A stretch of DNA of 42,715 nt from a virus (lineage: Duplodnaviria; Caudoviricetes), in IMG/VR virus record IMGVR_UViG_3300033417_000022, positions 1 to 42,715 of that record; one strand, given 5' to 3'. A model generated the notes under the pieces. The model did not search any database. It was given only the letters and a program-made list of their open reading frames with translations, and was not told the DNA's origin. The translations under genes were made by a program, and so were the position numbers. The number at the start of each line of letters is the position of its first letter. The stretch's first letter is position 1. Of this stretch, positions 9,146 through 42,715 are shown piece after piece.

Positions 9146-9658
9146 ATGACTATCAAGTACCCCGCAGACGGTCAGCTCTACGTCGGGTGGCTTGCCGACT
9201 CCGCTGGCACCGCCGTCGAAGACGTCGAAGCCCCCGACCTCGCCGACTTCGCCGAGATCGTGGATCTGTCATGCGACATCCAGTCCGGCGGCGTCGATCT
9301 CGGCATCTCCACGGCCACCATCGACGCGGCGTCGATCTGCTCGGCGTTCGTCGCCATGGCCAACGGCCGGACCACGGTCGCCCCCACCCTCACCTTCTGG
9401 CGCTACAAGCAGCCGGACGACACGGCGTGGGAGCTGTTCGAGAAGGGCTCGCTTGGCTGGCTCCTAATCCGGACGGGCATGCCGTCCGAGCAGGCTCTCG
9501 CTGACGGCGATCAGGTCACGCTCGCCTGGCTGGAGATGTCCGAGCCGTCCCCGGAGTTCCCCGGTGGTGACACGCTCACCACGTTCAACGGCTCCATGCT
9601 GTTGGTCAACGGCCAGAAGTTCAGCCAGAAGGCCACGATCGGCGGCGAGTCTTCGTGA
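9146..9658 (+). CDS. Major tail (tube) protein
   Basis: DLSCDI and actinophage tube-like pattern; strong RBS GAGGAGG; precedes the chaperones. Confidence 0.8.
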   Translation: MTIKYPADGQLYVGWLADSAGTAVEDVEAPDLADFAEIVDLSCDIQSGGVDLGISTATIDAASICSAFVAMANGRTTVAPTLTFWRYKQPDDTAWELFEKGSLGWLLIRTGMPSEQALADGDQVTLAWLEMSEPSPEFPGGDTLTTFNGSMLLVNGQKFSQKATIGGESS

Positions 9659-10275
9659 CCCTGACGGTCGATGACCTGATCGCCACCGCCAAGCCGCGCA
9701 CGCTCGACGTGCCGGTTTGTGCGCGTGGCGATCTGGTCGACCGGCACGCCGAACTGGTCGCGCGACTCAACGCGGTCATCGCCGATGCGAACGAGTCGAA
9801 GTCGGTCAACGGGGAGTTCTCCGACCCGGAGATCGACCGACTCCACGACGAGATCGTGGCCGTCGAAGCAGAACAGGAGACCAGCTCGACGACGTTCACG
9901 CTCCGGTCGATCGGATCGTTGAAGTGGGCGAACCTGCTCCGTGAACACACCCCGCGCCCCGGCCGGGATCATCAGCTCATGTTCAACCTGACCACGTTTC
10001 CACCCGCCGCGGTGGCTGCGTGTGTGGTCGAGCCGCCGATGTCGTTGGAGCAGGCCACGAAGCTCTACGGCACCGACACCGAAGACGGGCTCCTCCATCA
10101 CGCCGAGTGGGACAAGCTGTTCGCCGCTGCGTTCAGCCTGAACGAGAACGAGACGCCGCACCCAAAACTGCCAGCCGCTATCGGGGGTCTCCTTCGGAGC
10201 GTGCGATCCTCGACTACAGCGGCGAACGGGGCATCCCCCGAGAAACCTTCCTCGGACGACAGCGCCGGAGCGTAA
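9655..10275 (+). CDS. Tail assembly chaperone G
   Basis: Position before the tape measure gene; TFPPAAVAAC...WDKLF motif; contains the slippery site. Confidence 0.8.
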   Translation: MTLTVDDLIATAKPRTLDVPVCARGDLVDRHAELVARLNAVIADANESKSVNGEFSDPEIDRLHDEIVAVEAEQETSSTTFTLRSIGSLKWANLLREHTPRPGRDHQLMFNLTTFPPAAVAACVVEPPMSLEQATKLYGTDTEDGLLHHAEWDKLFAAAFSLNENETPHPKLPAAIGGLLRSVRSSTTAANGASPEKPSSDDSAGA

Positions 10276-10580
10276 CCCGCTACCACTACGGCCCGATGGG
10301 CCGCTTGGAGTGGTCCGAGACGTTCCACGATCCCGAGTGGACCGAGGACGACATCGACGCTGCGCTCGACTACCAGCACGAGCAGAACCTGATCTGTGAC
10401 GGCTGCGGCCATCCAGTCGACGAGTCCCACGACGACGAGCACCGGGTGGCGTGGATCACAGAACGGGTGACGTGTTGGGCGTGCGCGTCCGCCGAACGGA
10501 CCCGCCAGCAGGACAACAAGGCGGGCAAGCAGGCGCCGCACGGCACGAAGTACGCGACCCGGAACCGGGCGAAGGACTGA
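10161..10580 (+). CDS. Tail assembly chaperone GT C-terminal part, reached by a -1 frameshift at C CCA AAA (10161-10167)
   Basis: X XXY YYZ heptamer in the G frame; the -1 frame stays open to 10580 and encodes EWTEDD...CDGCGHP...CWAC. Confidence 0.75.
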   Translation, partial: PKTASRYRGSPSERAILDYSGERGIPRETFLGRQRRSVTRYHYGPMGRLEWSETFHDPEWTEDDIDAALDYQHEQNLICDGCGHPVDESHDDEHRVAWITERVTCWACASAERTRQQDNKAGKQAPHGTKYATRNRAKD

Positions 10581-16351: not shown

Positions 16352-16945
16352 ATGCATTCCCGTCACGCAGAGCACGCCATTCTGCTCTCGGGCACGATCG
16401 TCGCTGACGAGACGTTCATCGGCGGCAACAGCAAGAACAAGCACCGCCAGGGCAAGTACGGCAAGCAGGGCGGGGCCGGGAGCCACAAGCGTTCGATGGC
16501 GAACAAGACCACGGTCCTGTCGCTCATCGACAAGGCGACCGGCGAGGTCCGGTCGAAGGTCATCCCCGACGTGACCGGCGCAACGCTCGCCAAGGAACTC
16601 GCCGCTCAGGTCGACATGGCCAACAGCGACCTTCAGACCGATGGCGGATCGCAGTACCGGGCCATCGGCCAGGAGTTCATCAGCCACGAGTTCGTGGACC
16701 ACAGCGCCTACGAGTACGTGCGGGGCGACGTGACCACGAACGCTGTCGAAGGGTTCTTCAGCCAGCTGAAGCGCTCGCTCGACGGCACCCACCACCACGT
16801 CAGCCGCAAGCACCTGCACCGCTACCTGGCCGAGTTCGACTACCGCTACTCGTCCCGCGAGGACACCGACACCGAGCGCATGACGAACCTCATGCGCTAC
16901 CGGGTCGGCGGTCGGCGGTTGAGCTACCGGCCAGTCGTGGACTGA
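16352..16945 (+). pseudogene. IS1595-family (ISXO2-like) DDE transposase, N-terminally truncated
   Basis: ADETFIGG, QTDGG, TTNAVEGFFSQLKR..GTHHHVSRKHLHRYLAEFDYRY motifs present; the usual N-terminal Zn-ribbon/HTH region is absent and there is no RBS. Confidence 0.85.
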
Positions 16946-17031
16946 ACACGCTCCGCGCTCACCGCGCGACTGTACGTACGGACCGCGCGAATATGGGGTA
17001 GTAATACAACCTGAGCGCGATTAGGATCGCA

Positions 17032-17103
17032 GGTGGAGCTAGAGAGACTCGAACCCTCGGAGCCAGGTTCCAAGCGTGCCTCCGTGAACCATTCACTAGC
17101 CCC
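17032..17103 (-). ncRNA. tRNA-Ala / tmRNA-TLD-like RNA (non-canonical)
   Basis: Minus strand: GGGGCTA GTGAATGGTTCAC GGAGGCACGCTTGGAACCTGGCTCC GAGGG TTCGAGT CTCTC TAGCTCC A CC; 7-bp acceptor stem with G3:U70, A discriminator and 5-bp T-arm; no canonical D or anticodon arm. Confidence 0.7.
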
Positions 17104-17150
17104 CAATGGGGTGATCCCGTGAGGGACCACCCCAAGGTTTGAAAACTCAG

Positions 17151-17423
17151 TCAGGTCACCGCCGAGGCGGCGGCTTGATGATGATGATCAGCACGACGGT
17201 CATCAGCTTCCTCTCCTTCCTCTAGGGGATGTTGCTCATCCGAAGGCCCCGTTCCAGCGGGGCCTTCGGCGTCTCCGGAGTTCATGTCGTGAACTCCCAC
17301 GCGCCCGTAGGTGCCACGTCGTGGCCCCCGGGCAAGTTCGTTGGCGTTGACCATGCGGGCGACGACGCTGCTGATCGACTCGTACTTCGAATCGTTCCCC
17401 TCCTGATGCACGACGTCGACCAC
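17151..17423 (-). pseudogene. Probable 5'-truncated winged-helix-like gene
   Basis: FSLTDVVDVV...SISSVVARMV...PRRGTY looks like a wHTH; an in-frame stop lies seven codons upstream of the GTG and there is no good start. Confidence 0.35.
17156..17203 (-). CDS. 15-aa hydrophobic micropeptide MTVVLIIIIKPPPRR
   Basis: ATG preceded by purine-rich AGGAAGGAGAGG; lies between hairpins upstream of the tRNA-like RNA. Confidence 0.4.
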   Translation of the reverse strand: MTVVLIIIIKPPPRR

Positions 17424-17614: not shown

Positions 17615-18004
17615 CTAGGCGTCGATCAGATCCGCTTCCTGGTTGGCGGCCTCGATGTGCTCGTCGTCGGCCTCGGCCTTGACGCAGTGCACCAGCACCT
17701 CGAACGGCACAGACTCCCAGTCATCCGTGTTCACGTCGGCACCGTGGAACGCCGAACGGATGGTGGGCTCGGCGAAGCTCACAGCTTCCCCGTAGCTCGC
17801 AGCGTCAACCAGGATGCTGACCTCGAACTCCCCGGTCGTGATGGTCCCGCTGATCTGGGGGTCCTCCACGCCGTCGTACTTCAACAACTCCTGGACGGTG
17901 CGGTTGAACGTGCGGTCCACCACGTCGTCATGGTCGTAGTTCTCACCGTCGTACTCGGGGGTCACGACGAACTGGCCCCACAGGGTGACCTCGAACTTCG
18001 TCAT
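17615..18004 (-). CDS. Putative HicB-like antitoxin (acidic)
   Basis: ATGA overlap with the upstream HicA-like gene; EVSILVDAASYGEAV strand-helix pattern; strongly acidic. Confidence 0.5.
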   Translation of the reverse strand: MTKFEVTLWGQFVVTPEYDGENYDHDDVVDRTFNRTVQELLKYDGVEDPQISGTITTGEFEVSILVDAASYGEAVSFAEPTIRSAFHGADVNTDDWESVPFEVLVHCVKAEADDEHIEAANQEADLIDA

Positions 18005-18354
18005 GGCTTGTCCTTCCAGCACGATTTCCCTTCGAACTTCGATCGTGTGTTTACCAGCGTACGACTACTTGATGCGGTCAGTACAACGGACACGAAGTGT
18101 TTCTCGGCACACGGGCAATAACACTTGAAGTATCCCGCATCCTTCAGAACGTTCCATCCCCGTTTCTCCGCCGCGCGTAGAAGCTTCTCATAATCCGGGT
18201 CGTTGTGCCGGGTGCGGGTTGCCTGCTTCTTCTTCGCCGCCGCCTTCGTCTTCCTCGCCTTCGCCTTCTTGGCCGCGCTCTTGGCGCGACGGGCTCGTTG
18301 CTTCTGGGCGTCAGCGCGTGCCTTCGCCTTCTGAGCGTCCTTCGGATCCCCCAT
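18001..18354 (-). CDS. Putative HicA-like toxin with Lys/Ala-rich N-terminal extension
   Basis: RH..DYEKLLRAAEKRGWNV...YFKCYCPC..H..SV.LT.S pattern; basic; extended -10 TGCTACGGT at 18374-18366. Confidence 0.55.
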   Translation of the reverse strand: MGDPKDAQKAKARADAQKQRARRAKSAAKKAKARKTKAAAKKKQATRTRHNDPDYEKLLRAAEKRGWNVLKDAGYFKCYCPCAEKHFVSVVLTASSSRTLVNTRSKFEGKSCWKDKP

Positions 18355-18429
18355 GCGAGCGGCCGACCGTAGCAGCCCTGTGGATATCTATGGGTTTGTC
18401 AAGTCACACATCACCGCGAGGAGACCCCC

Positions 18430-42699: not shown

Positions 42700-42715
42700 C
42701 AGGGTGGCGTCCCAT
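42700..42715. repeat. Right copy of the 16-bp terminal direct repeat
   Basis: Identical to 1..16. Confidence 0.95.

Follow-up and report, generated by a model that had tools for sequence, protein, structure and literature searches.

A compact tRNA gene that joins an alanine acceptor to a proline anticodon lies within the remnant of an IS1595-family insertion sequence (IS) in the window, the whole 42,715-nt stretch of viral DNA analyzed here. The structure of this gene, the conservation of its proline anticodon on two different tRNA bodies, its position in the IS and its association with a short upstream leader are directly supported. We lean towards reading it as a regulated missense tRNA carried by IS1595 elements, which would insert alanine at some proline codons while ribosome stalling on the leader would set the amount of tRNA. 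Few mistranslating tRNAs occur naturally in bacteria, and it is an open question what they are for and how they are controlled. The family described here targets one codon family (proline) from two interchangeable bodies on a mobile element, with a putative sensor of the same codons adjoining. With the cassette one can test directly if programmed mistranslation is under regulation and which purpose it serves, be it related to proline stalls, limits of EF-P or tRNA-cutting toxins.

Fold and parts of the compact tRNA gene

Read on the minus strand, the element has a 7-bp acceptor stem with the G3:U70 pair and the discriminator A73, followed by CC, so that the CCA end is only partly encoded (Table 1). 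The middle arm is symmetric, pairs at seven of its nine stem positions and is capped by a 7-nt loop of C32, U33, UGG, A37 and A38. This loop (CU-UGG-AA) is a canonical anticodon loop and reads proline. An earlier sequence-only reading had described a minimal alanine-accepting RNA in which a single irregular stem replaced the anticodon arm. Its account of the acceptor (G3:U70, A73-CC) and of a T arm with the UUCGAGU loop was accurate, and the element contains no tag ORF, as it had claimed. The absence of an anticodon arm was a misreading, with the irregular 9-bp stem carrying the canonical UGG loop. The D region, likened there to the 5' loop of tmRNA, is instead a paired 5-bp hairpin, and a GAC linker before the T arm is missing.

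Table 1. Positions of the tRNA gene, the leader, predicted hairpins and parts of the insertion sequence in the window
Feature	Position	Strand	Remarks
Compact tRNA gene, Ala acceptor (G3:U70, A73), Pro anticodon UGG	17032..17103	-	70 nt to A73, then CC
T arm	17042..17058	-	5-bp stem, UUCGAGU loop; consistent variant in independent contig
Anticodon arm	17059..17083	-	9-bp stem with two mismatches; loop 17068-17074; anticodon UGG 17070-17072; no variable loop
D hairpin	17084..17096	-	5 bp, 3-nt UGG loop; directly on acceptor stem, without U8-A9 connector
Long hairpin H2	17107..17134	-	predicted in the window and 6 homologs, sequences unrelated; ends 3 nt before tRNA 5' end
Leader micro-ORF	17156..17203	-	15 aa, hydrophobic, ending K-P-P-P-R-R; SD 17207-17220
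Hairpin H1 holding leader Pro codons	17159-17173	-	predicted
Hairpin H0 upstream of leader	17242..17267	-	L173 and L294 conserve it with altered bases
IS1595-family transposase, C-terminal DDE half only	16352..16945	+	PF12762, E 1.5e-36; NF033547
Winged-helix-like passenger ORF, C-terminal remnant	17151..17423	-	alignable with ORFs of 201-254 aa at 6 homologous loci
Short IS-associated ORF, 48 aa	17466..17612	+	62-70% identical matches in L173, L180, L169
Two passenger ORFs, possibly HicA-like (18001-18354) and partner (17615-18001)	17615..18354	-	lead only
Right terminal inverted repeat of IS	18391..18415	+	matches 19-32-nt repeats bounding complete elements L173, L164, L169, L180

Passages of PMC9976931 give A73, G2-C71, G3.U70 and G4-C69 as the four acceptor identity bases of bacterial tRNA-Ala, and G72 as a determinant of bacterial tRNA-Pro. 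All four alanine bases are present in the window element, which supports at the level of sequence the alanine identity proposed earlier; G20 is not assignable in the short D arm. The NGC anticodon, U8-A9 connector, 5-bp anticodon stem and variable loop of canonical tRNA-Ala are absent. From the bacterial tRNA-Pro set, the element has G35, G36 and A73, with C72 in place of G72 and A37 in place of G37. An acceptor and T arm of the window type occurred in 0/300 shuffled windows, and the folding energy of the element is ordinary (z -0.42). A contig from a second study spans 16965-17126 with a single difference, a T-stem G.U changed to G-C, which makes the stem stronger, and has the same anticodon. 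ARAGORN run on the window missed the element and Rfam gave no match at the gathering score. Compact tRNA genes are likely under-annotated, given that both tools miss the window copy.

A structural pattern scan of viral contigs returned 120 loci among the matches listed (about 350 estimated), of which 99 were distinct. Besides tmRNA-like RNAs consisting of a tRNA-like domain only (TLD-only), the scan recovered compact G3:U70 tRNAs in at least 35 stretches, 67-72 nt long, with a short D hairpin and a long anticodon stem. The compact phage tRNA-Ala form is 67-71 nt long and has its D hairpin directly on the acceptor, a long anticodon stem and a variable region of 0-4 nt, and the window element has all of these features. 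It belongs to the compact G3:U70 group and not to the TLD-only group. The commonest anticodons of compact viral tRNAs are UGC and GGC. These copies sit amid ordinary tRNAs in phage arrays, which argues by analogy that the compact fold can decode. Three phage-array tRNA-Ala(UGC) genes (L149, L160, L135) have the same geometry as the window element and a loop that differs by one base. The window element and L149 share a 22/9/70 geometry and align without gaps at 46/73 identical positions; the gap-free alignment with the IS-linked homolog L173 has 58/73 identical positions.

Homologs and the IS1595 setting

The window record is probably, judging by its sequence, a complete and circularly assembled phage genome. 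Its ends are identical over 16 nt (1-16 and 42700-42715), and it encodes a terminase, a capsid protein and a tape measure protein. Two overlapping ORFs at 9655-10580 (+) precede the tape measure gene, and an ORF overlap at this place is the usual site of the tail chaperone frameshift. The transposase beside the tRNA gene retains the ISXO2-like DDE domain of the IS1595 family and lacks its N-terminal half; a full-length relative has 334 aa. Its stop codon lies about 90 nt past the 3' end of the tRNA gene in convergent orientation. No left terminal repeat was found within the window. The IS shares with IS1595 elements the DDE transposase, terminal repeats of about 25 bp and variable passengers. 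The tail of the winged-helix-like passenger remnant overlaps the leader in another frame, and two of the six homologous passenger ORFs have a weak Pfam match to AbiEi_4. The two passenger ORFs further upstream have no Pfam or NCBIfam family at cut-off. Atlas structure matches to YcfA/HicA (TM 0.50-0.55), with no name for the partner, suggest that the pair possibly resembles a HicA-like toxin and its partner. Related elements carry other toxin-antitoxin-type genes (DUF433/DUF5615, NYN, DUF3800, AbiEi-like). The neighboring toxin-antitoxin pair, of which the sequence-only reading had suggested the RNA might be a component, is a lead only and is not kept beside homologs. No synthetase domain was found among the 34 window ORFs and 51 passenger ORFs scanned. 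The RNA of L416, which is closest to the window copy by transposase, is reduced to a degraded T arm and the 3' strand of the acceptor. The window copy may be less active than its intact relatives, as the element is deleted and the stop directly after Pro-Pro is lost. The closest cassettes lie in Acidimicrobiales records.

The search for homologs proceeded from the RNA and from the transposase. A genome scan for an alanine acceptor with UGG gave 27 loci, among them 12 with an IS1595 match; seven of these had the gene in convergent orientation directly behind the transposase stop, including two copies from a single genome. Four loci (L173, L164, L169, L180) are complete elements with terminal repeats. 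Six loci (L170, L171, L174, L181, L185, L186) contain the UGG pattern on an alanine body with the loop better paired as UUG (Gln), and these were excluded from the proline counts together with pattern matches that have broken acceptor stems; alignment A3 and model R1 include the six. Three of the six UUG loci come from Acidobacteria records and three lie near IS1595 transposases. A second collection was assembled by transposase alone, so the anticodon was not selected for, and comprised 188 evaluable loci. With four seeds left out, a convergent tRNA within 300 nt was present in 14/65 loci at >=48% transposase identity and in 1/119 below 48%, and the same-strand control found a tRNA in 3/188 loci; the homologs are kin and these counts are not independent. 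Among the 14 tRNA-bearing close relatives, 13 have UGG at the arm tip and one has GUU. UGG is the best-pairing register in 10/13, with L199, L217 and L245 ambiguous. At one locus (L208, 2415-2503, +) a long-arm tRNA of Ser type with the anticodon CCA (Trp) follows the stop of an IS1595 transposase by 9 nt on the same strand.

Copies with UGG sit on either Ala or Leu bodies. G3:U70 is present in 16/16 short-arm copies, seeds included, and G73 in 3/16. Pairs 1:72, 2:71 and 3:70 are the same in all 16 Ala bodies of Pro type, and pairs 4-7 and the T stem covary with pairing kept (one G.G mismatch). Covarying homologs beside IS1595 transposases support a conserved RNA, a check that the sequence-only reading had proposed. 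D stems are paired (2-5) in all 16 with differing sequences. The anticodon stems of the Ala bodies have 4-10 of 8-10 pairs, are often weak near the loop and include cases of C33 or G33. The four Leu-type long-arm bodies have perfect 5-bp anticodon stems, A73 and, as read by eye, A15-U48. Their anticodons are UGG (L240, L246, L229) and AGG (L209), all proline. Pro-loop copies also adjoin other transposases (L172, L177, L182).

Model R1, which has a poor consensus structure, recovered nothing in 151 genomes beyond the L173 copy and two canonical tRNA-Ala genes. An exact 20-nt scan of viral contigs gave 0 matches, blastn comparison of the region with phages and plasmids gave chance matches only, and a single-protein transposase scan of viral contigs gave one distant locus. 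When viral contigs were searched for Pro loops with a linked Pro-Pro-stop motif, 39 stretches came up, none of them a cassette by the filter.

The leader and hairpins upstream of the tRNA

A Shine-Dalgarno (SD)-led Pro-Pro leader lies upstream of the tRNA in 8/22 IS-linked copies, window included (4 Ala, 4 Leu), which supports the earlier suggestion of a link between the RNA and the upstream micro-ORF. The background is low, with such leaders in 17/3000 random windows, 2/123 other Ala-acceptor elements and 3/162 IS loci without a tRNA. Leaders of homologs end in Pro-Pro-stop. The leader is absent from 14/22 IS-linked copies, of which seven have a Met-Arg-Arg minigene and seven have neither. 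The Met-Arg-Arg minigene uses AGG codons (L199, L214, L217, L220, L245, L412, L414), never occurs with a Pro-Pro leader and overlaps the upstream stop in some copies. The leader frame looks selected, because 119/139 of its codons have G or C at the third position compared to 58/139 in the overlapping longer ORF. While the sequence differs, the layout is kept: one hairpin spans the Pro-stop codons, another of 12-24 bp ends 0-7 nt ahead of the tRNA, and the tRNA follows.

Leader-peptide attenuators such as the his leader and the Pro-rich mgtL leader are short SD-led ORFs whose cognate codons sense ribosome speed. The leader found here shares this trait, being a short SD-led ORF with codons cognate to the downstream product. 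Unlike in attenuators, what lies downstream is the gene of a tRNA that matches these very codons, and no terminator switch is predicted. Masking of the ribosome footprint at seven loci predicted no terminator-antiterminator switch, and a scan found no minus-strand promoter or terminator. A T-box-like display of Pro codons in the H1 loop is inconsistent among homologs. In two loci (L164 and L178) a shared hairpin about 60 nt upstream of the UGG tRNA replaces the leader, with an A/C-rich loop and a possible pseudoknot.

A quick tree of 78 transposases places L231, which has an Ala body, with L246 and L240, which have Leu bodies (SH-aLRT 99). L231 and L246 have a near-identical leader. In a single transposase clade, Ala and Leu bodies have replaced one another, with leader and UGG retained. 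This persistence across a change of body is the strongest sign, drawn from sequence comparison, that the proline anticodon rather than the amino acid is what counts.

Charging, decoding and competing explanations

The regulated missense tRNA that we favor would be transcribed antisense to the transposase, processed by RNase P and CCA addition, and charged with alanine by the host AlaRS. The ribosome would then put alanine at some proline codons. Decoding by the window tRNA is probably weak because its anticodon stem is mismatched. Scarce Pro-tRNA or EF-P would stall ribosomes on the leader prolines and thereby raise the amount of tRNA, which would in turn read through the leader stall and close the feedback. 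The control step is without structural support because no switch, minus-strand terminator or promoter is predicted. In an engineered reporter, attenuation can be brought about by runs of proline in a leader, according to part of PMC8129111. AlaRS and LeuRS ignore the anticodon in the account given in passages of PMC9976931. The parts of PMC10543346 considered here report an engineered yeast tRNA-Ala(UGG) with the highest listed mistranslation (12.8% of peptides). This tRNA likewise places alanine at proline codons, but it is a laboratory construct, eukaryotic and built on a canonical body.

Canonical tRNA-Pro(UGG) is present in 3/5 incomplete host genomes, and the swapped tRNA is therefore an extra tRNA and not a code change. 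Proline at positions where other transposases have alanine or leucine was at background level (1/140 and 0/53). Our preferred guess is that the gain lies in relief of proline stalls after loss of tRNA-Pro; alternatively, the cassette may deliver a toxic output for defense or addiction. A more far-reaching proposal, which we put forward as tentative, is a self-tuning IS1595 recoding module. Pro-Pro stalling would switch on a tRNA by which proline codons are recoded to alanine or leucine. The body of this tRNA would be swappable, and read-through of its own sensor would shut the module off. The module would bypass stalls or the destruction of tRNA-Pro, or else poison the cell, and the phage would have kept it after transposition was lost.

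Among natural tRNAs, the closest parallels are allo-tRNAs and tRNA-ProX. Passages of PMC5389517 describe allo-tRNAs as having a body of an anticodon-blind isotype with Ala or Ser identity, a non-cognate anticodon and in some cases G3:U70, and as lying near toxin-antitoxin and transposon genes, all of which resembles the window tRNA. The allo-tRNAs in that text have 8/4 or 9/3 geometry and a long variable arm, whereas the window tRNA has 7/5 geometry, 70 nt and no variable arm. Several allo-tRNAs near transposons are inactive in translation and some are active (PMC5389517, in part). The supplementary text and table of PMC5389517 contain no entry with a UGG anticodon, and its picture figures might show 7/5 forms; its passages mention no leader peptide or IS1595 link. 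The tRNA-ProX of Streptomyces and Kitasatospora, paired with ProRSx, is natural, of mixed Pro/Ala identity and unusual at base 33, like the family here (passages of PMC10404621 and PMC11415595). It acts in the opposite direction, a Pro body with a non-Pro anticodon placing proline at Ala, Asn and Thr codons, and in the same passages has canonical size and an adjoining synthetase (PMC10404621, PMC11415595). The portion of the PMC10404621 text consulted does not mention transposons, phage or a leader. The open-access literature, covered mostly at title level, yielded no tRNA passenger of IS1595 and no anticodon-swapped tRNA coupled to a proline leader. The mobile, leader-coupled design is apparently new among natural anticodon-swapped tRNAs.

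The RNA could instead be a non-decoding decoy that displays a proline anticodon loop and soaks up an anticodon nuclease directed at tRNA-Pro, or binds and slows ProRS; its Ala or Leu body would then be there for processing, charging and stability alone. We consider this unlikely. Weak pairing by the loop, the C33/G33 and G73 variants, the missing D-arm connector and variable loop, and a loop that alone is strictly kept would all suit a decoy, as would the toxin-antitoxin-type passengers of the same elements. Irregular tRNAs that are charged and yet non-translating are also known, according to part of PMC5389517. Against this, the Leu-body copies are near-canonical with perfect anticodon stems, and the compact fold fills the alanine slot of phage tRNA arrays. 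A decoy would also have no need for bodies of exactly those isotypes whose synthetases ignore the anticodon. The earlier description of the RNA as non-decoding is likewise hard to maintain with a conserved proline anticodon loop.

A second alternative is a spare tRNA-Pro, correctly charged by an archaeal-type ProRS through G35, G36 and A73, with the leader as a plain supply attenuator when Pro-tRNA is short. An archaeal/eukaryote-type ProRS (TIGR00408-type) is encoded in 5/9 host genomes of Ala-body copies. Enzymes of this type recognize a tRNA chiefly by its anticodon and tolerate G1-C72 (PMC9976931, in part), and they might charge part or all of the tRNA with proline, as the gene content of the hosts suggests. 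The Leu-body copy L229 has C1-G72, G37 and A73, which also fits. As a full explanation we nevertheless find a spare tRNA-Pro improbable, since the invariant G3:U70 of the short-arm copies invites AlaRS, A37 stands in place of the G37 of host tRNA-Pro, and a Leu-body copy with G1-C72, L209, occurs in a host whose ProRS is of bacterial type.

There is only a slim chance that the element is chiefly a mascRNA-like processing or stop signal with an incidental anticodon. In that case RNase P would cut at the tRNA-like fold, and the passenger transcript would stop short of continuing antisense into the transposase. The fixed convergent position just past the transposase stop, the long hairpin abutting the 5' end of the tRNA and a weak match to the mascRNA model are in line with such a signal. 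So is L218, where a Pro-Pro-stop leader past the transposase stop is followed by hairpins and a terminator-like U run without a tRNA. The signal leaves the proline anticodons on two bodies and their link to the Pro-Pro leader unexplained. Processing of this kind may be a side function of the regulated missense tRNA.

The sequence-only reading had proposed a mimic of the tmRNA TLD that lacks an anticodon and titrates SmpB, which now appears very improbable. TLD-only RNAs do exist, as in phage DS6A (passages of PMC4131195) and in 35/99 distinct viral matches listed, which are 76-81 nt long with the tmRNA D-loop motif and a GAC-type linker; the UUGGA loop motif occurs in 0/35 of these. The DS6A RNA is, like the window RNA, a short phage RNA with an alanine acceptor and T arm and no tag ORF, and in the same passages it is without the D stem and anticodon loop that the window RNA has (PMC4131195). 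The window element lacks both the D-loop motif and the linker, and it is identical to the 5' ends of four Acidimicrobiia-type tmRNAs at 7-9/20 positions. The partial Rfam match to tmRNA that had been anticipated was found (RF00023, 23.1 bits, cut-off 47). It is unspecific, because the same model scores ordinary tRNA-sized matches of 76-77 nt in other genomes higher, at 32-40 bits. Decay of a host tRNA-Ala or ssrA fragment left by integration is hardly credible for the window copy and largely refuted for the family, for although the surrounding IS is itself a deleted remnant and in L416 no more than the 3' part of the RNA survives, all four arms pair, the homologs covary and the architecture is unlike host tRNA-Ala.

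The viral scan also brought up RNAs of interest in their own right. TLD-only RNAs in viral contigs (L003, L007, L010, L016, L019, L052, L083 and others) form a large family and have a P2 stem capped by a small hairpin. They are of the SmpB-decoy type imagined earlier, and in print only DS6A was found. Compact tRNA-Ala genes (UGC/GGC) without the 8-9 connector occupy phage arrays in L130, L133, L135, L136, L138, L142, L143, L144, L149, L152, L154 and L160, and ARAGORN misses those in L138, L142, L143, L144 and L154. Compact Ala-body tRNAs with other anticodons stand alone in L139, L156, L158, L162, L140, L131, L159, L157 and L155. These stand-alone bodies include UAG copies near integrases and further anticodons UAC, GUC, UGU and UAU. 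At L139 (2001-2148, -), tandem UAA and amber CUA tRNAs have a promoter-like site upstream and adjoin a Mom-family gene.
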